This document shows, piece by piece, positions 23,108 to 43,540 of a stretch of 64,000 nt of DNA. The DNA comes from Candidatus Bathyarchaeia archaeon (lineage in GTDB: Archaea; Thermoproteota; Bathyarchaeia; Bathyarchaeales; Bathycorpusculaceae). The stretch lies in contig JBBFKZ010000008.1 in the NCBI GenBank assembly GCA_037481775.1, positions 1 through 64,000 on the forward strand, read 5' to 3'. The notes under the pieces are model-generated. The model was not told the DNA's origin. It saw nothing but the letters and a program-made list of their open reading frames with translations, and did not search any database. The position numbers and the translations under genes are program-made. Position 1 is the stretch's first letter, and the number at the start of each line of letters is the position of its first letter.

Positions 23108-24070
23108 TTATATCGACAGCATTTCAGCCAGCTCTAGCAAGTGCAAATCTAATTTTTTCTGCTTTTCACAACTTTCCTTAAGCTCCACATAGGTGATTAC
23201 GCCATTTTGCAGGCCAACAACCTTGTTACCTTGACCCTGAATCAAGAGTTCAACGGCTTTTTCAGCGAAGAGATTAGCTAAAAGCCGGCTTCGCGCGGTC
23301 GGACTGCCTCCTCGCTGCGCATAGCCTACTATGGATAAGCGCACTTCGAAGTCTGTTTGCTTGGCGATTTCCTCTGCGATTTTCCGGGTGTCGCCTACGC
23401 CTTCAGCGGCGACTATTATGCCGGCGCGTTTACCTTTTTGAGCATTAGTCTTTATCACATCGGCAATCTGGTTGATTGCACACTTATGCTCTGGAATTAG
23501 GATTACTTCAGCGCCGACGGATAAGCCCACTTCCAAGGCTAAGAAGCCCCTTTTTCGCCCCATGACTTCTACTATGAAGATGCGCTCGTGCGAAATTGCG
23601 GTATCTCGAATTTTGTCGATTGACGCTACGGCAGTATTCACGGCAGTGTCGAAGCCTATGGTTTCATCTGTTCCGTAAACGTCATTGTCTATAGTGGCGG
23701 GTACGCCCACCATCAACGTGCTGCTTTCCCGGCTTAAGTCCAGCGCGCCCTTGAAGGAGCCGTCGCCGCCGATAACAACCAAACCATCCACCCTATTCGC
23801 AGCGAGCGTTTCAGCAGCAAGCTTAACGTTTTCTGGCTTCTTGAATTCAGGACACCGTGAAGTATGCAGCATTGTACCGCCAAGCTGGATTATGCCGCCC
23901 ACGGCACGCGGCGTCAAGTGCTGATGCCTATTTGTTAGCAGCCCGTCCCAGCCGCGTTCAAAACCCAAAACTTGAAGACCACGCGAATGAGCAATTCTGG
24001 TGACAGCGCGTATAGCCGCGTTCATGCCAGGCGCGTCGCCGCCAGGAGTTATCACCCCGATTGTTTTCAA
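23108..24070 (-). CDS. pfkA: ATP-dependent 6-phosphofructokinase (bacterial PfkA family)
   Basis: GGDAPGMNAAIRA, GGTMLHTSR, IGGDGS, PATIDND, VEVMGR, GYAQRGG. Confidence 0.92.
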   Translation of the reverse strand: MKTIGVITPGGDAPGMNAAIRAVTRIAHSRGLQVLGFERGWDGLLTNRHQHLTPRAVGGIIQLGGTMLHTSRCPEFKKPENVKLAAETLAANRVDGLVVIGGDGSFKGALDLSRESSTLMVGVPATIDNDVYGTDETIGFDTAVNTAVASIDKIRDTAISHERIFIVEVMGRKRGFLALEVGLSVGAEVILIPEHKCAINQIADVIKTNAQKGKRAGIIVAAEGVGDTRKIAEEIAKQTDFEVRLSIVGYAQRGGSPTARSRLLANLFAEKAVELLIQGQGNKVVGLQNGVITYVELKESCEKQKKLDLHLLELAEMLSI

Positions 24071-24182
24071 CGGTCACCACCAATTCGCTTGTTCAAGACG
24101 CGTTAGGCGCTCGGAGAATTAAAGCTTATCTGAACACGCCAAAACACATAAATTCTTTTGTTTTATCACTAACAGTTTTGGT

Positions 24183-24339
24183 CGGGCGGTAGCTCAGCCT
24201 GGCAGAGCTTCCGAGCTGGCTAACACGCTTAGCTGGCGGAGACGCTGTAGAAGTCCACCCATGGTGGGCATCACCCAGCCTGCCGGGCGCACAAGCAGAA
24301 ACCGGACTGTCGCAGGTTCAAATCCTGCCCGCCCGACCA
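24183..24339 (+). tRNA. tRNA-Tyr(GTA) with two introns (30/31: 24214-24243; 37/38: 24251-24300) and encoded CCA
   Basis: Acceptor CGGGCGG/CCGCCCG (C1:G72, A73, the archaeal Tyr identity elements); D arm GCTC/GAGC; spliced anticodon arm TCCGG-CTGTAGA-CCGGA; T arm GCAGG-TTCAAAT-CCTGC. Both introns fit BHB-type motifs. Confidence 0.9.
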
Positions 24340-24411
24340 AAGTTTACTTCAACAAAGGATATAACATAACATGACGCTATTTTGAAAACAGTGCAAAATA
24401 AACGGGGTTTC

Positions 24412-25161
24412 TTATACGCTGGCGCGCTTTAGCGCTGTCACGGCGGCGGCGAAGAAGGAGGCGCCGAAGCCTATTAGGATGAAAAATGACAGCCACGGAA
24501 ACGGAGCGTCTAGGGCTAGTGCGCGTAGGGTACTACTTGAGTGGGTAAGCGGCAGAGCATACAGCAGCACCTTTGCCACGTCTGGAATCTGGGTTAAGGA
24601 GAAGAAGGTGCCTGATAGGAAGGTCATCGGCAGTAGCACTACGTTGCTGAAGGTGCTCATGCCCTGATGCGAATTGATAACCAGCGCTACGAGCACGCCG
24701 AAGAGTGCAAACACGAAACAGGACAAGAGCAGAAGAAGCACTAACCAAGGGCTGATTATTAGCTTAGGTGAAAGTGCAACGCCGACGAGAAGTATAGCGG
24801 AGGAGCTTATGAATCCGCGGAGTACGCCTATCAGTGCTTTGCCGACGATTATAGCGTAGATGCTTATAGGCGACATCAGCAGCTCATCGAAGCTCTTGTA
24901 GAAGAACCTGTCAACTTGAAGCTTTGATGCCGCGCCGTTAAAGCTTGTGGAGAAAGCAGTTAATGCCACGATTCCCGGGATTACAAACGCGAGGTAGCTG
25001 ACGCCTTCGAGACTTATTCCGCCGCCCAAGCCATAACCGAACGCCACCAAGTATAGGAGCGGCTGCACAAGGCTTGTAGCAATTGTGGCACGCCAGTGAT
25101 GACGAAGATTCCGAAGGTCAACCCAGAATACCGAGTACACATCATTCAAAAAACGCAGCAT
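24412..25161 (-). CDS. ABC-2 type exporter permease
   Basis: QPLLYLVAFG, YLAFVIPG, LPMTFLSGTFF, LPLTH; about 6 TM helices. Confidence 0.88.
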   Translation of the reverse strand: MLRFLNDVYSVFWVDLRNLRHHWRATIATSLVQPLLYLVAFGYGLGGGISLEGVSYLAFVIPGIVALTAFSTSFNGAASKLQVDRFFYKSFDELLMSPISIYAIIVGKALIGVLRGFISSSAILLVGVALSPKLIISPWLVLLLLLSCFVFALFGVLVALVINSHQGMSTFSNVVLLPMTFLSGTFFSLTQIPDVAKVLLYALPLTHSSSTLRALALDAPFPWLSFFILIGFGASFFAAAVTALKRASV

Positions 25162-26034
25162 TTAAGCGCCACCAACCTTTTCTCCAGTTAGCTCTACGAA
25201 AACGTCTTCCAAGTTTGAATCGCGAATAATAACTGTGCCTGCCGTGGCGGGTAAACTCTGCACATAACGCGTTGCCGAAGCGCGGTCAGCGAAATACTTG
25301 TAATGCGTTTCCTTATTATTCACATGCGCCTCCACGGCTACTAAGCCTAGTTTCTCACGCAAGGCCAAAGGAGTATCCAAGGCGATTAGGCGGCCATGAT
25401 GGATTATGCCGACGCGGTGACAAAGGGCCTCTGCCTCTTCAATATAATGTGTGGTTAGAAAGATGGTGGTGCCATCCACGTTTAAGCGGCGCACCAAGTC
25501 CCACAAGCGCCTGCGTCCCTGAGCATCTAAACCTACCGTAGGCTCATCGAGGAATAGCACTTGGGGCTGATGGAGTAGACTGCAGGCTATTGCAGCGCGT
25601 TTCTGCATGCCGCCCGAAAGAGTATTTATCATTCGATCAGCGCAATCACCAAGTTCAACATACTCCAGCAATTCATCTATACGCTTCCGGCGTTCTGTTG
25701 AGCTTAAATGATGTATTCTAGCGCGGAACTCCAAGTTTTCTCGCACTGTTAAGTCGCGGTCCAAACTTAAGTGCTGCTGTACCACGCCGATGACTTGCTT
25801 CACCTTATCCGCTTCCTTCACAACGTCGAAACCATTTATCCGGGCGAAGCCAGAGGTAGGCTTAGTCAAGGTTGTCATAATACGAATAGTGGTTGTTTTA
25901 CCCGCACCGTTTGGGCCTAAGAAACCGAAGACCTCCCCTTTGTGCACTTGCATATCTAAGTCTTGAACTGCCCGGACTGACCCGTAGCATTTATTGAGTT
26001 TTTCAGTTTCAATGAAGACTTCCAAAACAGCCAC
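25162..26034 (-). CDS. ABC-2 type exporter ATP-binding subunit (DrrA/NodI-like)
   Basis: GPNGAGKTT, LSGGMQKR, LFLDEPTVGLD, LTTHYIEEA, LEDVFVELTG. Confidence 0.92.
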   Translation of the reverse strand: MAVLEVFIETEKLNKCYGSVRAVQDLDMQVHKGEVFGFLGPNGAGKTTTIRIMTTLTKPTSGFARINGFDVVKEADKVKQVIGVVQQHLSLDRDLTVRENLEFRARIHHLSSTERRKRIDELLEYVELGDCADRMINTLSGGMQKRAAIACSLLHQPQVLFLDEPTVGLDAQGRRRLWDLVRRLNVDGTTIFLTTHYIEEAEALCHRVGIIHHGRLIALDTPLALREKLGLVAVEAHVNNKETHYKYFADRASATRYVQSLPATAGTVIIRDSNLEDVFVELTGEKVGGA

Positions 26035-26113
26035 CTACAATAAACATTGTGACAGAAACGCAAGTCGCATGTGAATATTCATAATCAACATCTCAGACAC
26101 GCCAACATGCGGT

Positions 26114-26848
26114 TTAGCTGAGCCCATCATTCTTTCTCAATGCTTCCGTTACTGCATTTTTCGCCGAGAAACCCATTAATTCGCCTATTTTAACGTGCCC
26201 GCTTGTCGTCTGCAACGGCGTACCTTCCGTCCCGGAGACCACAATTACGTTGTCGGTGCCTGTACCTGTCGCTTGATGTTTAGGTGAAGAAGTGCTTCTG
26301 ACATTTAAATCTTGAAGCGCCGCAGTTTTTGCTTCTGTAGCGGTAATGATAGCCCTTGCCATTGCGCCGTCACTTAATCTGGCATTGGTGAGAAGGATGA
26401 TGTTGATTGTTCCGCTTACGTAGAAGAATCGGCCGTCACGCTCATAGTAGGAAGCCATATCCACACCTGTTCTTAAAGCGTTACCCCTTGCACCTGCAGT
26501 AGCAATACAGCATACCTTAAGCTCTTGGAAGGAACTCTCGTGAACAGCAGCGTTATCCATATTGACGCCGGTGCTCATAAGCGCTATATTATCAGGGTTG
26601 ATTCCCAGAGTAAGCGGCAACTTCCTCCTGAAATCCTCGTAATTCATCATTGTGCGCTCTGACAACTTGAGCGGTGTATAATTGTTAGCCACAAACCCGA
26701 CTTGCTTAAAGCCGTCTAAGGTTGACAGCACCCGACGCTTTTCAGTAAAAGAAACAAGGAGCGTATTTAAATCAAAGCCTTCATAGTTGTGATAGACTAC
26801 TTTTACGTCAACTCTTGGCAGCTGAACTGGAATATTCCGTTCTTTCAT
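26114..26848 (-). CDS. cbiZ: Adenosylcobinamide amidohydrolase CbiZ
   Basis: ATAGARGNA, GTINIILLTN, AIITATEAKTAALQDL, ATGTGTDNVIV. Confidence 0.85.
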   Translation of the reverse strand: MKERNIPVQLPRVDVKVVYHNYEGFDLNTLLVSFTEKRRVLSTLDGFKQVGFVANNYTPLKLSERTMMNYEDFRRKLPLTLGINPDNIALMSTGVNMDNAAVHESSFQELKVCCIATAGARGNALRTGVDMASYYERDGRFFYVSGTINIILLTNARLSDGAMARAIITATEAKTAALQDLNVRSTSSPKHQATGTGTDNVIVVSGTEGTPLQTTSGHVKIGELMGFSAKNAVTEALRKNDGLS

Positions 26849-26850
26849 GC

Positions 26851-29800
26851 TTATTTCACCTTTTGTTTAATTTCATTTGCACCTTCAAGTAACCCTTCAA
26901 TTTGCAAGTATAACTTATGCAGTTCCTTCTTCATATCCTCCGAGGCATGCCACAGATTACGCTCGACAGCCTCTAGCAAGCGCTCAACCATGTTCTGTAG
27001 CGCGTAAGGATTCACTTCTTTCAGCCACTCCTGCATCTTCTTGTCAAAAACATATTTTTTAGCTAATTCCTCGTACATCCAGTCCTCGACAACCTCGACT
27101 GTAGCGTCCCAGCCTAAAACAAAGTCAAACGTCCTAGAAAGGTCTCCTGCAGCCTCATATCCATGGCGCATCATGCTTTCAATCCATTTGGGATTAAGAA
27201 GCCTCGATCGGAAGACATGGCATGTTTCCTCGGCGGTGCTTCTAACTTTAACTCTCTGCGGGTCAGAGCTGTCACCGCAGTAGGAACGCGGCGCCTTCCC
27301 CTTAAGGGTGCGAACAGCATTGATCATGCCTCCGTGCGCGTCATACCAGTCGTCACCATCCAAAATATCATATTCACGCGAGTCCTGATTTTTCACTGTC
27401 GCGTCGATGCCGCTTAAACGCCGCTTAAACTCTTCAGGAACAAAACGACCATAAGTCTTGCGACCATAAGCGTAGCTGCCCCATGTAACATATATATCGC
27501 TTAAATCCTTCTGATCCTTCCAGTTCTTGGCATCTATTGCCTCGCTGACGCCGCAACCGTAAGCGCCAGGGCGATCACCGAAAATTCTATAATGCGCCTC
27601 CTCCCTTGCTTTTTCCAGCTCAACGCCGTGCGCCACGCGCTCTTTCACTTCAGCTTCAACATGCTTCAGTATGTAGTTCTGCTCTGGAGACTCCTTAAGA
27701 CTGGCTACCAGCGCCACTGCATCGTCAATTATGTGTACAACATTGGGGAATGTGTCTCTGAAAAGGCCGCTTATGCGAACGACGACATCTATGCGGGGCC
27801 GCTTCAACTCCTCAAGAGGAATGGCTTCGATGCCGACGACTCGCCCGCTGGTTTCTTCCCACACGAGCCTGACACCCATTAAATAGAGAATCTCGGCTAT
27901 GTCATCGCCCTTTGTTTTCATAGTATCAGTAGCCCAGATAATGATGCCCACGCTTTCTGGGTATCGCCCTTCTTCCTTTAGATACCGTTCAAGCAAAGCG
28001 TCAGCTAACGCGACGCCGACACGCCAAGAAGCTTGTGAAGGCACGGCGCGAGGGTCTACGGAGTAAAAGTTTCTGCCAGTAGGCAAAATATCAGCCATAC
28101 CCCTCGTCACGGAGCCAGAGGGACCCGAAGGGACATACGTGCCTTCACAAGCACCCAACGTATTCGCTAACTCATCACTGGTGGCTGCTAAAGCAGGAAC
28201 CAAGAAACTGCTTATGTAACTGAGACAACGCCGCACATTCGGATTAGAGCCGCCGAGAACCTTCTGCATCACTGGATCAATCTCTTGCTCTCTAAAGCCC
28301 CTCGCATGAAACTCCCTGATCAGGCTTAAACAAAGCCCATGCAACTCCCGAATAACATCGCCGTTTGTTCGACCAGCAGCATTCAGCTTACCACGATTCG
28401 CCAGCAACTCCTCATAACTATAGCCCTTCATCTCCGCAATCGACTGACGCAAAGAAGGCACACCACCATTACTTAAACGAGTCAAAGTAACCAAAAACTC
28501 GTCTAATCTTGAATCAACGGGCGCTTCGCCTAGAATGTGTAAGCCATCGCGGATTTGTGCATCTGACAATTCATGTATGTAAGCGTGCAAGCGCTCTAAG
28601 AAGGCATCAAAATCAGCGAACACGGCCTCTTCAGTAACGTTCAGGTCGCGATCTAGTTTAGCGTTGACCACGTTTTCCCAGATGAGCTTTTGAGAAATCT
28701 GCGCCTTGTTTGGATCAGAAGCCTTGACGTGATAATATTCTTGTAGTTGAACTTCCAGCTTGGCGAGTTCTTCATAGGTATCCGCATTATGCATAACGGG
28801 CACAAGATACTCTATAATGCAACAGTAGCTCCTTCTTTTCGCTTGAGTCCCCTCGCCTGGATTGGTAATCACATATGGATAAATGTTAGGCAGATCGGAG
28901 ATGGCTATGTCTGGGAAGCAGGAGGCGGAGAGCCCGACGGACTTGCCAGGCAGCCACTCTAAGGTCCCGTGTGTGCCGACATGTATTATAACGTTAGCTT
29001 TGAACACGTCTCGAATCCAGCGGTAATAAGCGTAATAATGATGAGGCATTGAAACGTCAGGGCTGTGATAGATGCTGGATGGGTTCTCAAGAAAGCCGCG
29101 GGGCGGCTGCAACCCAATAAAGACGTTACCATTAACCAAGCCAGCAACCAGCAACTCATCTCCATAGCAGAAGAGCTTCCCAGGAGGCTCACCCCAATCC
29201 CTCTGCATCTTTTCTTGGACATCAACAGGCAACTCATTGAACCATGCTAAATACTGCTTCTTGGAGATCTTGGCAACAGCCCTCTCAGCAAGCTCCTTGG
29301 CGCTTAGCCAGCGGCGGTCATTGGTTAAGCCATTTATTATAGCCTCGATGAGTTTCTGCCCATTCTCAGGTATTAAGTCCAGCTTATATCCTGCATTATT
29401 TAGTTCGCATAGAATTTTATGAACTGAAACGGGGGCATCAAGTCCAAAAGCGTGGCCGATGGTGTCGTTTCGAGGAGGATAGTTATGAAGGATTATTGCG
29501 ACCTTCTTTTCGCTGTTTGGGATATGACGCAGTTTTGCCCAGTTTATGCTTAAACGCACTACTTTCTTAATTCGCTCTGGGATTGGCTCATACTGAATTA
29601 CGGTGGTTCCTGGAGTGCTGGTTTGGGAGAGAGCCATTGCTGCAATGGGCACCGTGATTAAGAGGCCGTCGAACTCGGGCATCGCAACGCTGGTAGGCAC
29701 ATCGATGAGGCTGATACCTTGCATGCTCTCGCGCCATTCATCGCAGGTATTACATGTCAGAATAGCTTTTATTATAGGCACGCCCAGCTTCTTTAGAACC

Positions 29801-30606
29801 TCAACTGCAGTGGCGCCAAACAAGGAAGTGGAAAGAGAAAACGCCAAGGCGCTGATTACTACGTCAACAACGGGTTTTCCATTCTTCATAAAATAGTTTT
29901 CAATTACCCACTCTAGCCCTCTCATCCCTAAAGCTTCATTCTTGGCGCCTGTGAAAAAAACTGGAAGCACATTAGCGCCTTGCCGCTCTATTTCTGCTAT
30001 TAGCTGATTTACGAAATTGGTGTTTTCGCCTTGCCACTGTGTCTGATGGAACCAAATTCCAACTGTGGGTCTACCCGGCGCAATTTTCTTTGCAGCATAC
30101 TCCTCAAATGTCGGAGAATGCGCAAACTCTGGGTGATAGATGCCCTCCCATGGCGGGCGCTCCGGCGGTTTGATTTCATAATTGGCGCCGGCAAAGCGGT
30201 TTGCCAAATAAAGTAAAAGGTTTTCGATGTTCTTCTTTCCACCATAATTTAGATACTTGAAAATTTCCTTGTAGTCTTCTGCTGTAACAGTAGAATAGCC
30301 CTTAAACTTGGCATTCTGACCGAAAAATGAAGTGGAAACAAAAAGAGGAACTCTTGCACTTTTTAATGTTGACACGAGAAGATCGAATTCTGGAAGATCG
30401 CCCATCAGGTGAACGAGTGTTACGTGGGATTTTTGCGCAAACTGGATGAAGTCTTCAAGTTTACCGAGGGCCCTGAAGTCGCCGCCAGTTTGAATTTTAG
30501 CCTCCACAACATCGCCCAGCCTCTCGTTTACGGAGTTAACCGCGGAAATGAAGGGCACAGCGTCTGTTGGGATTGTCGTAACGAATGCGACCTTAAGTTT
30601 CGCCAT
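26851..30606 (-). CDS. cobN: CobN/ChlH family chelatase large subunit (paralog 1)
   Basis: MPEFDG, NYPP, GLQPPRG, HVGTHGTLEWLPGK, EGTQAKRR, LPTGRNFY, RPRIDV, NPKWIESM. Start placed at ATG 30606, just after the upstream stop. Confidence 0.9.
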   Translation of the reverse strand: MAKLKVAFVTTIPTDAVPFISAVNSVNERLGDVVEAKIQTGGDFRALGKLEDFIQFAQKSHVTLVHLMGDLPEFDLLVSTLKSARVPLFVSTSFFGQNAKFKGYSTVTAEDYKEIFKYLNYGGKKNIENLLLYLANRFAGANYEIKPPERPPWEGIYHPEFAHSPTFEEYAAKKIAPGRPTVGIWFHQTQWQGENTNFVNQLIAEIERQGANVLPVFFTGAKNEALGMRGLEWVIENYFMKNGKPVVDVVISALAFSLSTSLFGATAVEVLKKLGVPIIKAILTCNTCDEWRESMQGISLIDVPTSVAMPEFDGLLITVPIAAMALSQTSTPGTTVIQYEPIPERIKKVVRLSINWAKLRHIPNSEKKVAIILHNYPPRNDTIGHAFGLDAPVSVHKILCELNNAGYKLDLIPENGQKLIEAIINGLTNDRRWLSAKELAERAVAKISKKQYLAWFNELPVDVQEKMQRDWGEPPGKLFCYGDELLVAGLVNGNVFIGLQPPRGFLENPSSIYHSPDVSMPHHYYAYYRWIRDVFKANVIIHVGTHGTLEWLPGKSVGLSASCFPDIAISDLPNIYPYVITNPGEGTQAKRRSYCCIIEYLVPVMHNADTYEELAKLEVQLQEYYHVKASDPNKAQISQKLIWENVVNAKLDRDLNVTEEAVFADFDAFLERLHAYIHELSDAQIRDGLHILGEAPVDSRLDEFLVTLTRLSNGGVPSLRQSIAEMKGYSYEELLANRGKLNAAGRTNGDVIRELHGLCLSLIREFHARGFREQEIDPVMQKVLGGSNPNVRRCLSYISSFLVPALAATSDELANTLGACEGTYVPSGPSGSVTRGMADILPTGRNFYSVDPRAVPSQASWRVGVALADALLERYLKEEGRYPESVGIIIWATDTMKTKGDDIAEILYLMGVRLVWEETSGRVVGIEAIPLEELKRPRIDVVVRISGLFRDTFPNVVHIIDDAVALVASLKESPEQNYILKHVEAEVKERVAHGVELEKAREEAHYRIFGDRPGAYGCGVSEAIDAKNWKDQKDLSDIYVTWGSYAYGRKTYGRFVPEEFKRRLSGIDATVKNQDSREYDILDGDDWYDAHGGMINAVRTLKGKAPRSYCGDSSDPQRVKVRSTAEETCHVFRSRLLNPKWIESMMRHGYEAAGDLSRTFDFVLGWDATVEVVEDWMYEELAKKYVFDKKMQEWLKEVNPYALQNMVERLLEAVERNLWHASEDMKKELHKLYLQIEGLLEGANEIKQKVK

Positions 30607-30608
30607 AC

Positions 30609-31445
30609 CTATGCAATCGCCTCTGACTTTGCTGTTGCGGACAAGTTTTTCCACAGTCGACTGCCCGAAGACTCAGGCATCAGAGGCGTAACTTGCGGTC
30701 TATCCACCACAGAGTTAGTTACGCGAGCTTTAACTCCGTAGACTGCGGCAATGTTCTCTTCCGTCAGCACCATCTCGGGGGCGCCAGCAGCGAAGATACT
30801 GCCTTTCTTGAGCATGAGGATTCTATCGGAGAATCGGCTTGCCAAATTCAAATCATGGATGGCCATTATTACAGAGCAGTGCTTGCTCTGCGCCAGACAC
30901 TTAAGCATAAGCAGTATCTCTAGCTGGTGCTTAATATCCAGCGAACTAGTGGGTTCATCGAGAAGCAGAACCTGCGGCTCCTGCGCCAGAGCGCGGGCGA
31001 TAATCACTTTTTGTTGTTCTCCACCGCTTAGCTCGTTAAAATGGCGCATTGCAAGTTCCTTTATGCCCAAGAAAGCTAGGGTTTCTGCAATTATCTCGTA
31101 GTCGCGTTCACTTAAGCTCCAGTGAATGTATGGTTTCCGACCCATCAGCACTACATCGAAGACAGTAAAAGGAAACGCGCAAGCTGATGCTTGAGGAACA
31201 TAACCCATTATTTTGGATAATTCTTTGAGGTTAAGTTTGTTGATGTCTTTGCCGTCGATTAGGACAGTGTTTTGTCGAGCTTTTAGAATGCGGTTAATGC
31301 ATCGTAGTAGAGTGCTTTTGCCTGAACCGTTAGGACCTACTATGCTTAAAATTTCTCCGGCTTCCACGGCGAATTCAATGTCACTTAAGACGGCGATGCT
31401 TGCATAGTTGAAGGAAAGTTTGTTTATTACAAGTTTCAACGCCAA
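30609..31445 (-). CDS. BtuD/FepC-like ABC importer ATP-binding subunit
   Basis: GPNGSGKSTLL, GYVPQ, LSGGEQQKV, LLLDEPTSSLD, HDLNLASRF. Confidence 0.92.
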   Translation of the reverse strand: MALKLVINKLSFNYASIAVLSDIEFAVEAGEILSIVGPNGSGKSTLLRCINRILKARQNTVLIDGKDINKLNLKELSKIMGYVPQASACAFPFTVFDVVLMGRKPYIHWSLSERDYEIIAETLAFLGIKELAMRHFNELSGGEQQKVIIARALAQEPQVLLLDEPTSSLDIKHQLEILLMLKCLAQSKHCSVIMAIHDLNLASRFSDRILMLKKGSIFAAGAPEMVLTEENIAAVYGVKARVTNSVVDRPQVTPLMPESSGSRLWKNLSATAKSEAIA

Positions 31446-32512
31446 CTTTGCCTCCTTTTACTTATTAGAATGTAAAGGAAAAACGGTACACCAAGCAGTG
31501 AAGTTACAATGCCAACTGGCAACTCGGTAGGCTGCATTACCAGCCGCCCCACAGTATCGGAGCAGAGAAGTAGACAAGCTCCTACAAGGGCGCTGCATGG
31601 TATGAGAAAACGATGGTCGCTACCAATGAGCATCCGAGAAATGTGCGGAGAAATTAGGCAGATAAAACCAATTACGCCTGTGAATGCGATTATTGTGGCG
31701 GTTGCCAGCGTTTCCAAAACCATAGTTATTGCAAGGACACGTTTAGAGTTAACACCTAAGCTTGTTGCAACATCTTCACCCATGCTTAGCACGTTTATGT
31801 TCCAAGACTGAAAAATCATCAGAATGATTGTGACTAAGACTATAGGGAAAACAATTTGCACGCTTTCCCAATTTGCGGCATTAAGCCCTCCCATAAGCCA
31901 GAAAACAACTGCGCGAACAGCTTCATGCTCAGGCGCAACGTACTGAATTAGGGATAACATTGCTGAGAAGAGATAGCCAACAGCGACACCTGCTAAGATT
32001 ATGGTTTCAGGTGTCATGGCGCGTATGCGGGCGATACAATACACAAGCACCATGGCTAATACGCTGAAGAAGAAGGCGTTAGCAATGATCAAGTAGTGAC
32101 CATAACCCTCGATGATACCTACACCGAATACTATGGCTAATGCGGCACCGAATCCTGCCGCCGCTGAAATTCCCAATATGTATGAGGAGACAAGCGGGTT
32201 CCGAAGCACACCTTGCATTGTAGCTCCTGAAGCTGCCAGACCCGCGCCGGCGATTATGGCCAAAATGACCCGTGGCAAACGCAGATTCCAGATTATTATT
32301 TGAGTTATATTGGGGCCAGGATCTATTCCTAAAGAGGGAAAGAGCTTGGCTAAGATTACTTGCATGGCTTCGTTGAATCTTGGAGAACCAGCGCCTAGGC
32401 TGATTGAAATGATTGTAGCAGCTATTATGGCAAAAGAAACGGTGAGTAGGGCAAGAATTTTCCGCTTCTTGCCCGCACCGTAAAGCCTTTTAAGCTCAGC
32501 AACGCTGCTCAT
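31436..32512 (-). CDS. BtuC/FecCD-family ABC importer permease
   Basis: [41 protein letters not shown] at 32512 overlaps the upstream TGA (ATGA). Confidence 0.92.
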
Positions 32513-33729
32513 GGATAGGCAAACACTCCCTGCACGGTTGTTCCGAAAAACTTTTGATAAAGCTCCGCGTGTACAGCATTTGGGTCTATGTCTGCAAAAA
32601 GCGTGGGTTGGCACCATTTAGCCCAGTAAAGGTAGCCGACTACGCTGCTTATTCCACCCCTGATGTCCCAATCGCAGATGTAGACCCGCCCGTTTTTAAC
32701 AGCATCAACATTAGTTAATTCAGGGCGGCTCATTATTGCGTCACGCTCAGCAATGAAGTCTGTTACATTGTGATTGGAGCTGCTGCTCATGCGGATAATT
32801 ATAGCAGGATTTTGTTCAACCACGAATTCAGGGCTCAGTACAGGTGCGTAGACCGTCTGGTTTTCAGCAATGTTGATGCCTCCAGCTTGATCTAGGCCGG
32901 GAGTAACAAACGTGTTATATGGTGCATACCACTCCAGCATAACCTTGGGTCTCTGCTCTTGAGTCAAATTTGCTAGGCGCTGCTTGACAAGGTTATTGTA
33001 GTATTGCACGTAACTAATGTATTCATCAGCCTTATTTTGGCCGCCAACTATCGTAGCCAGCTTGCTTAACAAGTTGCAGCTAAAGTCCACCACAGTCAAA
33101 TTTGAATGCTTAGTAGGTTCAGGATCAACGGGATCAGAGATGAAAATGGGTATGCCTGCTGCTTCCAGTTGGCTCATGGCTACAGTGTTATAGGGCAGCA
33201 TTGAATCGGCGAATATTACGTCTGGCTTGAGTTCCAAGATTAATTCAACATTTGGCAGGTAGGAGTTTTCACCAACCACTGGAATGCTTAGCACAGAGGC
33301 AGGCATGTTCGAAGAAGCGTCACGTCCAACAATTTTATCTTGGACACCTAATGCACAGAGCATTTCGGTTAAGCCATCATTGATGCTAACAATGCGATTA
33401 ACAGGCACTGTCAAAGTAACGTTTCTACCAGCACCATCCACTATGGTAATATTCTGAGGCACAATCGGCGTCGGCGTGGGAGTAGGGGTGGGAGTTGCTG
33501 TGGCGGTGGGCGTCGGTGTACTTGTCGGTGACTCCGTGGGTGAAGGTGTGCTTGAGGGTTCAGGGGAATTCATAGGAGTAGAGACGGGTGAAGGCGGCGG
33601 AGAAGGCGATGTTGATGGTGACGGGGACGGAGAAGGCTGCGGCGTGTAAAGCATGTTGTAGCCGCCGTAAACTGAAGCGACAATTACAGCAATTATAATA
33701 GCGGTAGCAGCAAGAACAATTCGTCTCAA
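32509..33729 (-). CDS. BtuF/FepB-like substrate-binding protein 1 (N-terminal TM anchor, P/S/T linker)
   Basis: [53 protein letters not shown] at 33729 follows GGAGGTGA. Confidence 0.88.
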
Positions 33730-33745
33730 TACCACTCACCTCCTT

Positions 33746-35743
33746 TCAATTATTGAAACGTTGTAGAGTATCAGGAAACAGGTTGCTGCGGACCGCGGAG
33801 ATAATGGGCGCTGCGCTAAGTTCTTCTAGCTGAAAATATTTGCCGCCCATTTCAGCGCATATCTGTTTCACGAGACCTAACGTGATGAAATTACGTTCAG
33901 TGTCTATGGCAATTGAATTTATTCCAGCTGTGCCTATTGCACGCGCTACAGCTTTTGCCTCTTCCACCGGATCGCCGCCATTTAGTGGAACATTTGCTCG
34001 ACCATCAGAAACCAAAACTAAAAGTGGAATTGTCTCTTTATCTCGCTGCATATACTCGCGGATAACTGTTAGCCCAAGATTTAATCCGTGAGCCATCGGG
34101 GTACGACCGCCCGTGGGCAAGTTAGCCAAGCACTTCTGGGCAAGATCGACACTGTTGGTTGGCGGCAAGACTAGTTCAGCGGTTTTTTTCCTAAAGGCAA
34201 CCATACCTACGCGATCGCGACGCTGGTACGCATCAAGCAAAAGAGAAAGTATGGCGCTTTTGGCGGCAGTCATTCTCTCTTCAGTAGCCATAGAGCCGCT
34301 GGCGTCAACCACAAACATGATCAGGTTGCCTACTTTCCTTTCCCGGACTTTTTCTCGTAAATCAGATTTTTCAATAAGCAATGCATTTGCTCCGCTGGAG
34401 CCGTTTCTTCGCTGAAGCTGGTAAGGTGCAGCAGCTCTCAGAGTAGCGTCAAAAGCCAAGTCAGTCACTTTCCCTTTAGGAATTGCGCTGTCTACATAGC
34501 GTCCTGTCTTGGCTTTGCTTCTGCTTTTGGATCGCCTTCCGGCGGAATTACGCGGCATCTGATCTAAAACAGGCGTGGATAGGCGTTTAACGGGATATGG
34601 TGATCCAGCGTTAAAGACTTGCTCTTTTTCAGGTGTCTCATTTTCTTGTGGTTGCTCATTTTCTGAGGAATCACTTTCAGATTGCGATTGAGGTGGTTCT
34701 TTATTTTGGCGCCAGTTCCGAACGCTTTCCTGAAGCTGCTGCTGCTCCAGCTTGGGTTCTTCGAAAGGTTGGCGCCGTCGCCGATGAGGTAGCGCTAGCT
34801 CGGCTGCTTCTATAATATCTTCCTCGGTAACTTCTGTGCGCCCTTTAAAAGCCGCGATGGTGCAAGCGGTTTTGTAAATTGTGATGTCGGCGCGGTGGCC
34901 ATCGACGCCGAAGTCTATGCAGATTCGCGTGATTAGATCAAGCATTTCATCGCTTAATTTCACGTTGGGCAGGAGCTTTCTGGCCTCTTCGATCTTGCGG
35001 CGCATTTGCTCTTGAGCACTTTGATACTCCGCGATGAATGATGCAGGGTCATTTTCGAAGGCAACGCGCCTGCGCACTATTTCAGCCCGCGCTTCTTTAT
35101 ACGGGATGCCTTTGACTTCGACTGAGAGCGCAAAGCGATCTAACAGTTGAGGACGTAGCTCACCCTCTTCAGGGTTCATTGTGCCTACTAAAATGAACTG
35201 GGCGGGGTGGCTGAATGAGATGCCCTCGCGTTCTACAAAATTTACGCCCATGGCTGCAGCGTCGAGTAGAACGTCAACGAGGTGATCGTCCAGCAGATTC
35301 ACTTCATCGATGTAGAGGATGTTTCGATTGGCTTCTGCGAGGATTCCAGGCTCGAAGTGTTTTTCGCCTGTTTTGATTGCTTTTTCAATATCAAGCGTAC
35401 CGACAAGGCGGTCTTCTGTGGCGCCGAGAGGTAACTCGACTACAGAAACGGATCTTTTGGTAACAGGGATTTTCTCGCCTTTAGTTACTCGTGCAACACA
35501 TGTATCGCACATATCTTTGGGACGCGCAGGGTCGCAATGAAAAGGACAATCAGCTACTACGTCAACTTCGGGCAATAGATTAGCTAATGCGCGCACCACC
35601 AAGGATTTGCCTGTGCCCTTTTCGCCGCGGAGTAGAACTCCGCCAATTTTTGGATTTATAACGTTAAGAATGAGCGCCAGCTTCATTTTTTCTTGTCCAA
35701 CTATGGCGCTGAAGGGGTAAACGGTTTTGGTTCGCCAACGCAT
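33746..35743 (-). CDS. ChlI-ChlD-like fused chelatase ATPase (AAA+ plus vWA), presumed partner of CobN
   Basis: [51 protein letters not shown], acidic linker, DASGSM MIDAS, GGRTP, VSDGRAN. Confidence 0.92.
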
Positions 35744-35765
35744 TCTGCATTCTCCCAGCTATATT

Positions 35766-35782
35766 GGTTGGATTATCCATTT
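35766..35782. promoter_or_regulatory. 17-bp palindromic operator copy A (chlID operon)
   Basis: GGTTGGATTATCCATTT, directly downstream (in transcription direction) of the TATA box at 35784-35789. Confidence 0.7.
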
Positions 35783-35795
35783 ATATAAATCTTGG

Positions 35796-35822
35796 TTCAA
35801 CTAAAATTTAATACAGGTTGAA
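35796..35822. promoter_or_regulatory. 27-bp upstream element copy A
   Basis: TTCAAC-taaaatttaatacag-GTTGAA, 6 nt from TATAAA at 35784-35789. Confidence 0.7.
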
Positions 35823-35916
35823 TACATAAAAGGGGGATAACAAAACCACGAAATAAGCCATAAAAAGTAAAAAAGGAAAATGCGTCCTTTACAACAATAG
35901 AGCCATTCAGAGTTGC

Positions 35917-37098
35917 TTATGGATACGTGAACACTCCAGTTAACTCAGCATTGAAGAACCTTTGTATGTACTCCGCATGTATCGCAGCAGGATCAATGTC
36001 TTGGAACAAATTTGGATGTAGCCACTTTGCGAAGTATAGCAAACCAATTACGTCACGATCAACCAACAGCACGCTTTTAATCACATAGACAGTACCGTTC
36101 TTCACAGCTTTTGTTTCGCTTAGCTCTGGCCTAGCTAATATGCTGTTTCTCAAAGTTTGCAAAGACGCTAAATCTTCACCATCCAAGTATGTGGACATCC
36201 GAATAACAATAGCAGGGTTAGCCTCGGCCACGAATTCTGCGCTCAACTGTGGACTGGAGGTACTGGCATTTTCAGCTATATTTATTCCACCAGCATCAAC
36301 TATCAGTTTATCGTAAGAACCACCTGGACCCGTGCTGAACCAGAGCTTGTACCATTCGAAGTAGACTAACGGTTTCTCGCTTCGTGAAAGAGCGGCAACT
36401 CGATTTTTAACCAGATTCACATAATACGTTTCGTAGTTTATGAACTCCGTTGCTTTCTGCTCTGCTTGCAATATCAAGGCTAAATTGCGTATGCACTCAT
36501 ATCTTCGGCTGCCTGTCAAGGTATCCTCCATAACGGCTATTCCCGCATCTTCTAGTTTCTTTCGGTTTTCATCGGTTAAGCGTTGGCTAGCAAGAACCAA
36601 ATCAGGCTTTAACTCAACTATCAGTTCAAGATTCGGTTCCATGTCAGTGCCTACGTCAGGTAATTCCAAAATTGACTTGGGCAGGATTGCTTCAGCGTCT
36701 GAGCTTAATGAAGCACTCCGCGCTACGACTTTGTCGCCTGCACCTAACACATGCACAATCTCTATCATAGTAAGACAAATAATGCGTTTCACAGGAACAG
36801 CTACGGTAACATTGGCGCCATTCGCGTCAACCACAGTGATGTTCGAGATCTGTGGTGCTTCCGGTGATTGGGTAGCGTTTGGTTCAATTGTTGGCGAAGG
36901 CGAGGGCGTTGGCGTAGCCGTAGAAGATGGTGTCTGCGAAGGCGTAGGAGAAGCACTGGTTGGGGATTGGATAGGAGATTGTGAAGGAGTTGGTGTTGGC
37001 GATGTTGATGGCGATTGCGATAGGATGTTGTAGCCGCCGTAAACCGAAGCCGCAACTACAACAGCAACAATAGCAGCCACAAGAATAACACGCCTCAA
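35917..37098 (-). CDS. BtuF/FepB-like substrate-binding protein 2
   Basis: Paralog of SBP1: TM anchor, P/S/T linker, PNLELIVELKPD, AGGINIA, AKWLHP, ends FTYP. Confidence 0.88.
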   Translation of the reverse strand: MRRVILVAAIVAVVVAASVYGGYNILSQSPSTSPTPTPSQSPIQSPTSASPTPSQTPSSTATPTPSPSPTIEPNATQSPEAPQISNITVVDANGANVTVAVPVKRIICLTMIEIVHVLGAGDKVVARSASLSSDAEAILPKSILELPDVGTDMEPNLELIVELKPDLVLASQRLTDENRKKLEDAGIAVMEDTLTGSRRYECIRNLALILQAEQKATEFINYETYYVNLVKNRVAALSRSEKPLVYFEWYKLWFSTGPGGSYDKLIVDAGGINIAENASTSSPQLSAEFVAEANPAIVIRMSTYLDGEDLASLQTLRNSILARPELSETKAVKNGTVYVIKSVLLVDRDVIGLLYFAKWLHPNLFQDIDPAAIHAEYIQRFFNAELTGVFTYP

Positions 37099-37188
37099 AA
37101 ACTATTCACCTCCTCATTATTGGTTATTGAAACTTTGTAAATCAAACAGATTGCTGTAATTTGCCAATGTTTGCGCGGCAACATGCTT

Positions 37189-37205
37189 GGATGGATTATC
37201 CATAG
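37189..37205. promoter_or_regulatory. 17-bp palindromic operator copy B (SBP2)
   Basis: GGATGGATTATCCATAG, 5 nt from TATAAA at 37211-37216. Confidence 0.75.
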
Positions 37206-37222
37206 TTTTATATAAACATTAG

Positions 37223-37249
37223 TCAAACTTGAGTTAAGATGAGGTTGAA
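37223..37249. promoter_or_regulatory. 27-bp upstream element copy B
   Basis: TCAAAC-ttgagttaagatgag-GTTGAA, 6 nt from TATAAA. Confidence 0.7.
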
Positions 37250-37386
37250 TAACCTAATCTACAAGCCTATATCGTTAAAAACGAACATGAGGAGCTTATT
37301 TAGCAGGTATACAAAGGAAAACAACTTTTATAGGAATTATAATGAAACTGAAAAGAACAGATGAGGCAAAGGCCGGGGTGTGTTAA

Positions 37387-37794
37387 ATGAGTGGAGAGAT
37401 GAGGGCATCGCTGTTTGCAAAATGCGGAATAAACTGCCGAACATGCGTTGGTTTTTTCGGCTATAAATTGAATGGCGAAAGAACAAATCCATGCGGCGGC
37501 TGCCAAACAAGGCAGGAAAAATGCACGTTCTTTAAAAAGCACTGCAAAAATCAAGCAAACAGAGAAAAAATCGAATATTGCTTTGAATGTGATGACTTTC
37601 CATGCGCTGAACTGAAGAAAATTGATGCATACTATAATCAGAAATATGGAACGAGTTTAATTGAGAATTTTATGTATATAAAAATAAACGGCTGGGAAAA
37701 ATTTCTGGAAGGGGAAGCAGAAAAATGGGAATGCCCGCGTTGTGGCGGCGTAATCTGCTCGCAAACAAAAAGATGTTACACATGTAATCCTTAA
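37387..37794 (+). CDS. DUF3795-like Cys-rich protein
   Basis: CGINCRTC, CGGC, YCFECDDFPC, WECPRCGGVIC...CYTC. Confidence 0.75.
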   Translation: MSGEMRASLFAKCGINCRTCVGFFGYKLNGERTNPCGGCQTRQEKCTFFKKHCKNQANREKIEYCFECDDFPCAELKKIDAYYNQKYGTSLIENFMYIKINGWEKFLEGEAEKWECPRCGGVICSQTKRCYTCNP

Positions 37795-37863: not shown

Positions 37864-38388
37864 TTAATGCATGAATGTCGCGCGGGGGTTTTGTCCCAAA
37901 ATTTGTGCAACCGCTCGCAAACTTAGCGTGTCGCAAATCTTCTCCACGATCTGAACAGATTCCTCATCAGGTCCTGCTACAGCACCGCGCACTATGTAAG
38001 GGAAAAAGCCCTCATCATATGCAGCAAGATAAGTTGCTAGAACACAGTTCAGGGCGCTAAGCCCTATGAGAATTACAGTATCGCAGCCTTTATCCCGAAT
38101 CATATGGGCTAACGCCGTCTTGACAAAAGCGTTTTGATGAGTCTTAATAACTTTGGCATCTTCAGCCATCGCGGTTAAACTTGGGATAAGTTCAAACTCT
38201 TTTGTCCCGGGCACAATACCTCGCTCGGCATAGGAATGGTAAGTAAAGATGATCGGGGCGCACGCTTTTCGAAATATTGAGATCGCTTCGCTCATTGCAG
38301 TTATGCGCTCAGTCACTGATCGTTTCAGTCCTTCAGACAGTTCTAGCCAGCCATTCTGAACATCAATCACAATCAACGCCGGTTTCAT
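37864..38388 (-). CDS. Isochorismatase-like cysteine hydrolase
   Basis: ALIVIDVQN, KTHQNAF, GLSALNCV (D-K-C triad). Confidence 0.85.
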   Translation of the reverse strand: MKPALIVIDVQNGWLELSEGLKRSVTERITAMSEAISIFRKACAPIIFTYHSYAERGIVPGTKEFELIPSLTAMAEDAKVIKTHQNAFVKTALAHMIRDKGCDTVILIGLSALNCVLATYLAAYDEGFFPYIVRGAVAGPDEESVQIVEKICDTLSLRAVAQILGQNPRATFMH

Positions 38389-38451
38389 AGTAATGCGCTC
38401 CTATTGTGGTTATGCTTTATTCCCCTGATGTCGCTCATAAAGGAGTACTCA

Positions 38452-42195: not shown

Positions 42196-42268
42196 CGTCT
42201 ATTCAATACTTCATAAAAAAGGAAGAGGAACCATGGCGACTTGTGCCAGTATCATTTGCTGCAAAACG

Positions 42269-43408
42269 TTATGGATAGGCATATGTGCCCTCCAAGGCAA
42301 CTCCGAAGAAAGTTTGAATCATTTCCCTGTGTATAGCAGTTGGATCTACATCTGCAAAAAGATCAGGATGGAGCCATTTGGCTAAGGTCAGCAAGCCAAG
42401 GGGGTTGCGTGTTCCTGTTCGGAAGTAATGATCCATAACATAGACCTTACCATTTTGGACAGCCTTTGTAGCACTGAGAGCAGGTCTGTTCATTAGCTCC
42501 TCACGCATAGCTTGAAAATCTTTGATGTCGTGAGTTGCACTGCTAATCATGCGGACTATTATGTCGGGGTTGCGCTCCGTAACATACTCAGGACTCAAGG
42601 TTGGATAGGTAACAGTCTGGTTGGCAGCGAGATTTATTCCACCAGCATCGATTATCATCTGATGGGGTAAACTAGCGTTATTGCAACTATACCAAGCTTT
42701 AACCCATTCGTAATATACTAAGGGCTTTTGATCATCTTTCAGATCTTTGACACGATCCTTAACAAGATCAGTTATGCCGTCCATAAATTTGATCAGGGCA
42801 TCAGCCCTTTCCTCTTTACCGAGGATTTCGCCTAGATAAGTTATTATAGGCTTTACACGGTCCGTTTGGGAAGGATTATCAATGATTACAGGAACATGGA
42901 GAAGCGATTCGATTTCAGCGCGGGTATCATTGTTAATTCTAGTATCGGCAACTATCAAATCAGGTCGCATTTCCGTTAAGGTTTCCATGCTTAAACCGCT
43001 TGATCCGTAAACTACTGTCAGGTTTAAAACAGAATCTGGAAAAGTAGAATAAAGGTCACGCCCAACTATTTTATCGCCGGCGCCTATAGCATAGATTATT
43101 TCTGTAAAACCACTTTGTAAGCTTACAATACGGGTCACAGGAAGGGCAATAGTTACTTGAGTCCCCGTGACATCCACAACAGTAATTGTCTTGTTTTGTG
43201 GTGTTGGTTGAGTTTCTGTAGGAGCTGGCGTGCTTGTTGTTGAAGGAGAAGCAGTACTCGAGGGCGAGGGAGAAACAACTGGACTTGACGAAGGCGATGT
43301 TGACGGTGACGAAGGCTGTGGCGAATAGAGGAAGATGTATCCACCATAGACAGAAGCGATAACAATAACTGCAACAAGAATTGAAACTATAAGCCCTGTT
43401 CGTTTCAA
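42269..43408 (-). CDS. BtuF/FepB-like substrate-binding protein 3
   Basis: Paralog of SBP1/2: TM anchor, P/S/T linker, [30 protein letters not shown], ends YAYP. Confidence 0.88.
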   Translation of the reverse strand: MKRTGLIVSILVAVIVIASVYGGYIFLYSPQPSSPSTSPSSSPVVSPSPSSTASPSTTSTPAPTETQPTPQNKTITVVDVTGTQVTIALPVTRIVSLQSGFTEIIYAIGAGDKIVGRDLYSTFPDSVLNLTVVYGSSGLSMETLTEMRPDLIVADTRINNDTRAEIESLLHVPVIIDNPSQTDRVKPIITYLGEILGKEERADALIKFMDGITDLVKDRVKDLKDDQKPLVYYEWVKAWYSCNNASLPHQMIIDAGGINLAANQTVTYPTLSPEYVTERNPDIIVRMISSATHDIKDFQAMREELMNRPALSATKAVQNGKVYVMDHYFRTGTRNPLGLLTLAKWLHPDLFADVDPTAIHREMIQTFFGVALEGTYAYP

Positions 43409-43506
43409 GCGTGCTCACCTTCGTCGTTTATTATTTTAAATTGGTTCGTGATTGCGGGTATGATGTAGTGAGTGGGTTGTTGTTTCATGTTTACCGCCTT
43501 ATTCAT

Positions 43507-43523
43507 GGATGGATTATCCATGC
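43507..43523. promoter_or_regulatory. 17-bp palindromic operator copy C (SBP3-cobN2)
   Basis: GGATGGATTATCCATGC, 5 nt from TATAAA at 43529-43534. Confidence 0.75.
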
Positions 43524-43540
43524 ACATATATAAATTTTGT

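Follow-up and report, generated by a model that had tools for sequence, protein, structure and literature searches.

This locus raises the question of why an archaeon that makes cobamides by a cobalt-early pathway encodes a late-type cobaltochelatase large subunit, CobN, and why the gene of this protein is embedded among genes of an importer, a salvage enzyme and an exporter. The operon concerned occupies positions 24412-35743 (minus strand) of a 64,000-nucleotide (nt) stretch of contig JBBFKZ010000008.1 of a Candidatus Bathyarchaeia archaeon (assembly GCA_037481775.1), which was analysed as a whole and is referred to here as the window; the genome of the host comprises 1.82 Mb in 54 contigs and is 96.7% complete. 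The function of CobN in cobalt-early anaerobes and archaea is an acknowledged open question (PMC12583661, PMC8305020), and the role of CobN-type homologues in Archaea is described as unclear in the account given in PMC12583661. The window encodes a CbiX-CbiC fusion together with CbiD, CbiE, CbiT, CbiL, CbiF, CbiG, CbiH and CbiA, which bears out the claim of a first-pass annotation, prepared from the sequence of the window alone, that the host has an early-insertion pathway; given that this pathway is full, the same annotation was right in regarding the late-type CobN as unneeded for de novo synthesis. Results of our analysis support the view that the exporter belongs, with the importer, the chelatase and CbiZ, to one conserved unit, which is predicted to be regulated by cobamide or cobalt.

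The analysis of open reading frames and of Pfam and NCBIfam profile scores, which were read against curated cut-offs and served to name the genes, confirmed that the operon consists of eight co-oriented, overlapping or abutting genes behind a single promoter with two operator motifs, as had been claimed earlier. The first of them (33746-35743) encodes a fused ChlI-ChlD motor subunit (TIGR02442, "putative cobaltochelatase", 841.6 bits vs. a cut-off of 779.45) with the Pfam domains AAA_lid_2, Mg_chelatase, and VWA. Its AAA+ part with the Walker A motif GEKGTGKS is connected through an acidic, Pro-rich linker to a VWA domain with DASGS, and a search of the whole genome identified it as the sole ChlI-like gene. 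The downstream genes encode a surface-anchored substrate-binding protein, SBP1 (32509-33735; Peripla_BP_2, 114 bits), a permease of FecCD/BtuC type with eight hydrophobic segments (31436-32617; PF01032, 308.7 bits), an importer ATPase of BtuD/heme/corrinoid type (30609-31445; PF00005), the class I chelatase large subunit, CobN1 (26851-30654; PF02514, 1390.6 bits over profile positions 2-1089 of 1090), CbiZ1 of the adenosylcobinamide amidohydrolase family (26114-26848; PF01955, 168.3 bits vs. a cut-off of 27), and, finally, an ATP-binding cassette (ABC) exporter of ABC-2 type, composed of an ATPase similar to DrrA/NodI (25162-26034; TIGR01188, 325.3 bits vs. a cut-off of 312.45) and a permease with the ABC2_membrane domain (24412-25161; PF01061, 77.4 bits vs. 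a cut-off of 26.9). All these genes are on the minus strand.

The spacers between consecutive genes, as calculated from the coordinates, are 10 nt, an overlap, an overlap, an overlap or 2 nt, 2 nt, 79 nt, and 0 nt. The true start of the BtuC-type permease is probably M36 (32512), which would leave a 4-nt overlap with the SBP1 stop codon, and that of CobN1 is probably M17 (30606), 2 nt past the stop codon of the importer ATPase gene. The CbiZ1 gene begins 2 nt downstream of CobN1, and the two exporter genes abut each other, with a 0-nt spacer, as a pair of DrrAB/NodIJ type. Inspection of the 79-nt spacer between the CbiZ1 and exporter genes revealed neither an oligo-T run nor a well-placed TATA box. 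T-rich stretches are present downstream of the last gene of the operon and downstream of the gene of SBP2, an SBP1 paralogue encoded nearby.

Operon conservation, a comparison that the first-pass annotation had proposed, proved to extend across Bathyarchaeia, in which the gene order is retained. Relatives of CobN1 are encoded by 8 of 31 related genomes, representing 4 of 25 genera. Five of the relatives' loci extend past CobN by 3 kb or more, and in all five the genes of CbiZ and of both exporter proteins follow the CobN gene; three relatives' loci have the entire order ChlID-SBP-BtuC-BtuD-CobN-CbiZ-exporter, down to a CobN identity of 62%. Additionally, the reading frames of CbiZ and exporter abut or overlap in relatives. 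We extended the comparison to 74 loci from named genomes, including 56 Bathyarchaeia/Thermoproteota-type records; this set contains also loci of CobN2-type paralogues, which are devoid of these neighbours. In the Bathyarchaeia/Thermoproteota group, 42 loci include 3 kb or more of downstream sequence: 34 of them encode CbiZ, 30 encode the exporter ATPase, 33 encode the exporter permease, and 29 encode all three. The full colinear order of eight genes is present in 20 of the 35 loci of this group with both flanks.

The distribution of the exporter within the 31 genomes follows that of CobN. Orthologues of the exporter permease (57-100% identity) are encoded by exactly the eight CobN-bearing genomes and by none of the 23 remaining ones, and all other matches to this permease are at most 37% identical; since the genomes are kin, not independent of each other, and represent four genera only, these counts describe patterns and are not statistics. 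The inclusion of the exporter in the module, proposed in the first-pass annotation, is thus sustained within Bathyarchaeia by its colinearity and by its occurrence in just those eight genomes of the 31 that encode CobN. A genome of the same genus that lacks CobN (G002) contains, on its contig C1 (113216-113317), a 35-residue remnant with 68% identity to the C-terminus of the exporter permease. The persistence of this remnant in a genome without CobN suggests that the operon was deleted there.

The promoter of the operon (~35744-35830, minus strand) comprises an upstream inverted repeat, TTCAACC..TTAAAT..AGTTGAAC, a TATA box, TTTATATA, a palindromic operator, GGATAATCCAACC, at 35766-35778, and a short leader with GGGAG ahead of ATG. 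The same architecture, namely an inverted repeat TCAACY..TTAAM..GTTKRAC (motif 1), a TTTATA box and the palindrome GGATAATCCATCC, which follows this box at a distance of about 3-12 nt, is common to the ChlID, SBP2 and SBP3 promoters (all on the minus strand) and to the divergent region between a regulator gene and cbiM. Operators that overlap or follow the TATA box of archaeal promoters are usually sites of repressor binding. Promoters with operator sites are located at 35744-35830, 37180-37260, 43500-43570, 45453-45526, and 56978-57010 of the window, and a further operator is at 85995-86007 of contig C3. With up to one mismatch, the 13-mer GGATAATCCATCC occurs nine times in the 1.82 Mb, as compared to about two occurrences expected at uniform base composition. 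Four of these sites are just past the TATA boxes of the ChlID, SBP2, SBP3-CobN2, and regulator/cbiM promoters, one precedes the BtuF-BtuC-BtuD-PP-loop protein-CobT-CobS-CobY operon of contig C3, and one is on contig C2, near the genes of a second CbiZ and of a B12-binding radical SAM protein. A copy with two mismatches follows the TATA box of the hemA-cbi promoter. Because this operator is common to the cbiMQO, hemA-cbi, and btuFCD-cobTSY promoters, the operon can be assigned to one predicted regulon together with the genes that serve the uptake of cobalt, the synthesis of B12 de novo and its canonical import, and the shared palindrome implies a common, as yet putative, regulator. A scan of the genome for motif 1 found it only at four transporter/chelatase promoters, those of cbiMQO and of the SBP/CobN units; as the patterns used were built from the sites themselves, the result shows restriction and not significance. 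In other Bathyarchaeia, the same promoter architecture precedes ChlID: 9 of the 37 upstream regions examined contain a strict core, GGATAATCC, and at least eight others have degenerate versions, as judged by eye. No riboswitch was detected by Rfam models at gathering score across the whole window. The design of promoters with two operators marks a predicted B12/cobalt regulon in an archaeon without riboswitches. An obvious candidate for the regulator is a MarR-type protein with a DUF7839 domain (44613-45452), whose own start lies on the operators and whose gene adjoins the cluster in 12 of the 56 Bathyarchaeia loci.

The identity of the chelatase is central to the interpretation of the operon. 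CobN1 scores 1027.6 bits with the CobN model TIGR02257 (cut-off of 822), and it also passes the cut-off of the BchH model (870 vs. 829 bits); profile models alone do not separate the two families. Among proteins of solved structure, CobN1 is most similar to CobN (864 bits for that of M. tuberculosis and 714 bits for another), followed by ChlH (554 bits) and HmuS (389 bits), the last match being limited to the C-terminal part of CobN1 (residues 790-1236). The H-x-G-x-H-G motif of CobN1, HVGTHGTLEWLPGK, aligns with HLGKHGNLEWLPGK of the M. tuberculosis protein (7C6O), and its D-x-DD-aromatic...HGGM segment of CobN type, DGDDWYDAHGGM, aligns with DSDDYFQYHGGM, while ChlH differs there. The HmuS motif LSLDHxxEFMGG, in the form given in PMC12583661, has no match in CobN1, in which the CobN-type DGDDWYDAHGGM takes that position. 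A hydropathy scan of CobN1 revealed no terminal membrane segments, and the protein has no Met-rich insert (1.8% Met). Since neither CobN1 nor its paralogue in the window, CobN2, has a terminal membrane segment, both are predicted to be cytoplasmic.

To place both proteins, we constructed a quick maximum-likelihood tree of 44 rows (LG+G4), with branch support from the SH-like approximate likelihood ratio test (SH-aLRT) only. It was based on 32 of the 74 loci and on reference sequences taken from plasmid records (six of CobN and two of BchH); HmuS was left out of the tree and compared by its PDB scores and published motif. CobN1 and CobN2 fall into a 33-row clade of anaerobes (SH-aLRT 100) inside CobN, outside of which branch, in this order, a second Desulfosarcina copy, the Haloferax CobN, the clade of CobN proteins of the aerobic pathway, and the BchH outgroup. 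By this placement, the sequences of both are those of CobN proteins, and the clade that holds them does not include the characterised aerobic enzymes. Thus, of the phylogeny against CobN, ChlH and HmuS that had been proposed earlier, the comparison with CobN and BchH was done by the tree and that with HmuS by scores and motif, and in both of them the two sequences are of CobN type. An HmuS/BtuS-like role, to which CobN1 had been linked, is not upheld, as CobN1 is nearer to true CobN (864 vs. 389 bits) and the HmuS hallmarks are missing. The accompanying idea of de-metallation also loses ground, given the retention of CobN-type motifs, the branching with CobN and not with BchH, and the presence of the ATP motor partner. 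Heme, F430 or chlorophyll derivatives, named previously as possible substrates, find no support in a CobN-type sequence. No McrA was found in the genome, 96.7% complete, so the host has no need for F430; methanogen F430 chemistry was rejected on this ground.

The remaining parts of the operon point to import and salvage. The FecCD-type permease and its ATPase constitute a type II importer, for which the BtuC and corrinoid ATPase models are at the top of matches, although below their equivalog cut-offs; the best NCBIfam matches of the ATPase, both below cut-off, are heme and corrinoid ABC ATPases. SBP1 has a single N-terminal membrane helix, a long Pro/Ser/Thr linker and a cluster-A binding domain. 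CbiZ1, which had no match in a sequence search of PDB, has 33% identity to the other CbiZ of the host, encoded on contig C2, and the downstream salvage route is encoded as well (CbiB twice, CobT, CobS, and CobY). Of the remodelling of corrinoids or other tetrapyrroles suggested in the first-pass annotation, the part concerning corrinoid or cobalt supply is therefore retained, in view of CbiZ, the shared operators, two bacterial riboswitches and a homologous bacterial operon (see below), while non-corrin substrates and de-metallation are not.

In our opinion, chances are about even that the operon is an accessory module of cobamide/cobalt supply, which acts in the chelation direction and includes the exporter. 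In such a module, scarcity of cobamide would free the operators, and the surface-anchored SBP1, together with SBP2 and SBP3, would capture a corrin-type ligand outside the cell and deliver it to the ABC importer of type II. The cytoplasmic CobN, powered by the single fused ChlI-ChlD ATPase, would insert cobalt into a cobalt-free corrinoid, that is, into a substrate that the early-insertion pathway of the host cannot supply. CbiZ1 would trim incomplete or foreign cobamides to cobyric acid, from which CbiB, CobY, and CobS could rebuild the cofactor, and the ABC-2 pump would clear a by-product or an unusable ligand. That the specific substrate is an imported cobalt-free corrinoid is a tentative proposal, clearly less probable than the supply role as such. 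A further scheme appears to us distinctly unlikely. In it, the importer would take up foreign corrinoids or cobalt chelates, the class I chelatase would use ATP to move cobalt, and the pump would expel a product or residue of corrin type. If this scheme is true, the chelatase would be the first known example of an enzyme that moves cobalt in salvaged corrinoids, and the pump the first prokaryotic exporter dedicated to corrinoids.

Several observations weigh against a supply module that metallates corrinoids. A true BtuF-type importer already exists in the host, as a canonical BtuF-type operon is present at a separate locus of contig C3 (79000-87000), where the substrate-binding protein scores 100 bits with solved BtuF. 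SBP1 scores at most 48 bits with any solved protein (YiuA being the best) and 35.2 bits with the E. coli BtuF model, the cut-off of which is 234. In the Foldseek order of its structural matches, YiuA (a binder of iron or of a siderophore fragment), MolA and the Ni-His binder CeuE are ahead, heme binders rank 30 or beyond, and BtuF ranks 44. The fold of the SBP1 model, obtained with a predicted local distance difference test (pLDDT) value of 94.8, appears to be nearest to those of YiuA-type metal-chelate binders; its identity to all solved relatives is 18-23%, and the target-normalised template modelling (TM) scores are close (0.77 vs. 0.74) and hardly separate the ligand classes. With this model score, this rank of the BtuF fold and a true BtuF operon elsewhere, the label btuF previously given to the SBP1 gene is doubtful and not justified. 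Motif 1 is absent from the hemA-cbi and btuFCD promoters, a distribution that suggests cobalt supply no less than salvage of corrinoids. A search of the genome gave no clear CobW chaperone (the best CobW-family match is 26 bits). All eight CobN-bearing relatives carry CbiD, and the module was seen only in de novo producers of the sample, in which two related genomes have CbiD without CobN. Moreover, of the 151 Dehalococcoidia genomes sampled, three encode a CobN that belongs to this clade (identity of 55% or more), and only one of the three has an exporter orthologue (E ≤ 1e-50); this sample is too sparse to serve as an independent test of co-occurrence, and it weakens the exporter link outside Bathyarchaeia. 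The anaerobic pathway is not known to us to make a cobalt-free corrinoid. Finally, the reading that we favour assigns the exporter no necessary role.

The exporter does obtain a clear role if the importer takes cobalt (or nickel) on a small organic chelator, CobN-ChlID uses ATP to move the metal into a de novo tetrapyrrole, e.g., sirohydrochlorin, when cobalt is scarce, and the chelator, once freed of its metal, is secreted or recycled through the ABC-2 pump. We consider this explanation unlikely. It agrees with the nearness of the SBP1 fold to YiuA, with MolA and the Ni-His binder CeuE also ahead of BtuF, with the existence of a separate true BtuFCD, with motif 1 being common only to cbiMQO and the SBP/CobN units, and with the presence of CbiD in eight of eight CobN-bearing relatives. 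However, it leaves without a role CbiZ, an integral part of the module, which abuts CobN translationally and is present in 34 of 42 loci; it has no metallophore synthesis genes in the operon to rely on, and the resemblance of SBP1 to metal-chelate binders has to be read against an identity of 18-23% to all solved structures and TM scores that hardly separate ligand classes. The bacterium Dehalobacter restrictus, which lacks de novo corrin synthesis, induces its homologous operon on corrinoid starvation (PMC4285132), which also speaks against it. Metal harvest or metal swap, the idea of the first-pass annotation, would mean that imported corrinoids or other metallo-tetrapyrroles are de-metallated by CobN-ChlID acting as a dechelatase; the metal would go to de novo synthesis, and the metal-free macrocycle would be pumped out. 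This would explain the exporter and its pairing with the chelatase, seen in Bathyarchaeia and in the bacterial loci L068, L076, L079, L086, and L092, as well as the occurrence of the module only in de novo producers of the sample and the sharing of one operator with the cobalt importer. HmuS, a CobN-family protein able to de-chelate heme, shows that de-chelation is possible in this family (PMC12583661). Yet CobN1 scores 864 bits with CobN vs. 389 bits with HmuS, the latter in the C-terminal part only, and it neither matches the HmuS motif nor has terminal membrane segments or a raised Met content (1.8%). We know of no mild chemistry and no enzyme that removes cobalt from corrins, which further counts against metal harvest. 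The operon retains the ATP motor, whereas the activity of HmuS is described as dependent on NADH and membranes (PMC12583661), and D. restrictus induces its module even though it is unable to use freed cobalt de novo (PMC4285132). All this makes metal harvest decidedly unlikely.

It is improbable, in turn, that these genes are mere neighbours, with a cobaltochelatase that is redundant, an importer of B12, an enzyme of cobinamide salvage and an efflux pump of drug or lipid type that has nothing to do with them. Each gene taken singly would receive a routine annotation, a weak promoter might fit into the 79 nt that precede the exporter genes, and two of the three Dehalococcoidia genomes with CobN of this clade are without the exporter orthologue. 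Against chance adjacency are the exact phyletic match of exporter and CobN (8 of 8 genomes with vs. 0 of 23 without, in four genera of non-independent kin), the colinearity down to 62% CobN identity, the abutting or overlapping frames of CbiZ and exporter in relatives, and the occurrence of exporter homologues (49-65% identity) next to CobN in distant phyla. The same pairing of chelatase and exporter is found in operon-2 of D. restrictus, as described in PMC4285132. The handling of a non-corrin tetrapyrrole (heme, F430, or a chlorophyll derivative) is in our view highly improbable. CobN1 does pass the BchH cut-off (870 vs. 829 bits), and the CobN-like BtuS/HmuS proteins of Bacteroidota uptake loci are reported to act on heme (PMC6460266, PMC12583661). 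Nevertheless, CbiZ, the operators shared with B12 and cobalt genes, and the cobalamin riboswitches of bacterial loci point to corrinoids; the genome encodes no McrA, the tree sets CobN1 and CobN2 outside BchH, and CobN1 is devoid of the HmuS hallmarks.

Two further units with related products are located upstream of the operon, also on the minus strand. The SBP2 gene (35917-37098; Peripla_BP_2, 126 bits) is a separate transcription unit with its own promoter, which extends to 37260 and contains both motifs, with the operator at 37189-37201. The third unit (37864-43570), the promoter of which has both motifs and an operator at 43507-43519, encodes SBP3 (42269-43408), CobN2 (38452-42195; 62% identity to CobN1; TIGR02257, 1066.5 bits), and a hydrolase of the isochorismatase family (37864-38388). 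CobN1 and CobN2 are the sole CobN proteins encoded in the genome, and the third unit has no ChlID of its own; with only one ChlI-like gene in the genome, a single ChlI-ChlD motor must serve both large subunits. This third unit is variable, as it is absent from the locus of one relative (G005). The pairing of CobN with an isochorismatase-like protein occurs also in loci L021, L029, L063, L065, and L089. A gene of a Cys-rich DUF3795 protein is located on the plus strand between the SBP2 and CobN2 units (37387-37794). Further along are the MarR/DUF7839 regulator gene, cbiMQO, a complete cobalt-early cbi set, and hem genes. CbiA of this set (57078-58613) is permuted, with the GATase domain first, and represents the known family PRK06278 (523.9 bits vs. 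a cut-off of 354). The PP-loop protein encoded inside the btuFCD-cobTSY operon of contig C3 (L094, 2856-3530) belongs to the Diphthami_syn_2 family (PF01902), and a paralogue of it is encoded beside the operator site on contig C2 (L095, 5625-6371), near CbiZ2 and the B12-binding radical SAM gene. Past the other end of the operon (24071-24411, plus strand), there are tRNA-like acceptor, D and T arms interrupted by about 90 nt, probably of intron(s); ARAGORN gives no tRNA in 23900-24500, nor does Rfam at gathering score.

The module is not confined to archaea. CobN relatives with 55-65% identity are encoded by Dehalococcoidia, Bacillota, Latescibacterota, Anaerolineae, Desulfosarcina, and Methanothrix, and exporter homologues with 49-65% identity adjoin CobN in distant phyla (loci L068, L074, L076, L079, L086, and L092). 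Cobalamin riboswitches precede the module in two of the eight bacterial loci scanned (L084 and L086, both of Bacillota), three further bacterial loci being outside the scan. Thus, one clade of CobN travels with an importer and CbiZ and, in the Bathyarchaeia genomes searched, always with an ABC-2 exporter. Our search of the accessible literature found no paper on the exporter link or on the Bathyarchaeia operon. The question of CobN function in these organisms is narrowed to the ligand of the SBPs, the tetrapyrrole that CobN metallates, and the cargo of the pump; if the latter carries a corrinoid, it would bear on the release and sharing of B12-type cofactors in microbial communities.

Comparison with known systems places the archaeal operon closest to certain bacterial clusters. 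Woodson and Escalante-Semerena are said to have described archaeal corrinoid salvage by BtuFCD and CbiZ in Halobacterium. The operon analysed here resembles this system in the location of CbiZ beside a type II ABC importer in an archaeon, but SBP1 is not BtuF-like, a chelatase and an exporter are added, and the BtuF-type operon is at a separate locus. With the late cobaltochelatases CobNST/CobN-ChlID (P. denitrificans, M. tuberculosis 7C6O, and Ralstonia), CobN1 shares full-length homology (~40% identity to the Ralstonia CobN), conserved active-site motifs, and an AAA+/VWA partner, encoded by the first gene of the operon. In contrast to aerobic CobN proteins, the genes of which are located beside cobW or cob genes, it adjoins transporters, and no clear CobW was found. 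The context of a cobalt-late pathway is not seen in the window, which holds a cobalt-early set (CobG and CobF were not searched for).

Similarly to HmuS/BtuS (PDB 9D26), CobN1 is a CobN-superfamily protein encoded in an uptake locus and has the H-x-G-x-H-G motif. The hallmarks of HmuS described in PMC12583661 include LSLDHxxEFMGG, a heme site formed by Met-79 and His-254, a Met-rich insertion, and terminal membrane regions; the motif, the membrane anchors and the Met-rich insert are missing in CobN1, and the context of the latter is that of corrinoids and not of heme. Additionally, the use of a ChlI/ChlD motor is not reported for HmuS, while CobN1 has a motor partner. Haloarchaea, like our host, are cobalt-early archaea that encode a late-type CobN beside a fused ChlID, and their pair (HVO_B0051/B0050) is presented as an open issue, with speculation on a role in salvage (Pfeiffer and Dyall-Smith 2021, PMC8305020). 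The Haloferax pair, however, is located inside a cbi cluster, without an adjoining importer, CbiZ or ABC-2 exporter, and its CobN branches outside the 33-row clade of anaerobes that includes CobN1.

The most similar system is operon-2 of Dehalobacter restrictus PER-K23 (Dehre_0281-0292), which comprises fepB, cbiZ, fepD, fepC, cbiZ, fepB, cobN, genes of two Mg-chelatase subunits, a radical SAM gene, and genes of an ABC export ATPase of Nod-factor type and its permease (PMC4285132). This operon is preceded by a cobalamin riboswitch, is induced by corrinoid starvation 346-fold at the RNA level and 46-fold at the protein level, and is syntenic with a cluster of Acetobacterium woodii (Rupakula et al. 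2015, PMC4285132). Its authors proposed transport plus salvage; the exporter is not a subject of their paper, the main text of which contains neither "export" nor "ABC-2" (PMC4285132). All eight kinds of genes of the archaeal operon are represented in operon-2, and the CobN proteins of Bacillota loci with the operon-2 layout belong to the same clade as CobN1. As judged from its shared operators, the archaeal operon may be under cobamide-linked control; in place of the riboswitch of operon-2 it has two DNA operators flanking the TATA box. Its ChlI and ChlD are fused, while those of operon-2 are separate; it has one CbiZ gene instead of two, and no radical SAM gene. D. restrictus, in which cbiH is truncated and corrin is not synthesised de novo (PMC4285132), is an auxotroph, whereas the archaeal host is a de novo producer. 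By its gene content, the archaeal operon is, in our assessment, the counterpart of the B12-controlled cluster of D. restrictus operon-2 type, a known but biochemically uncharacterised module.

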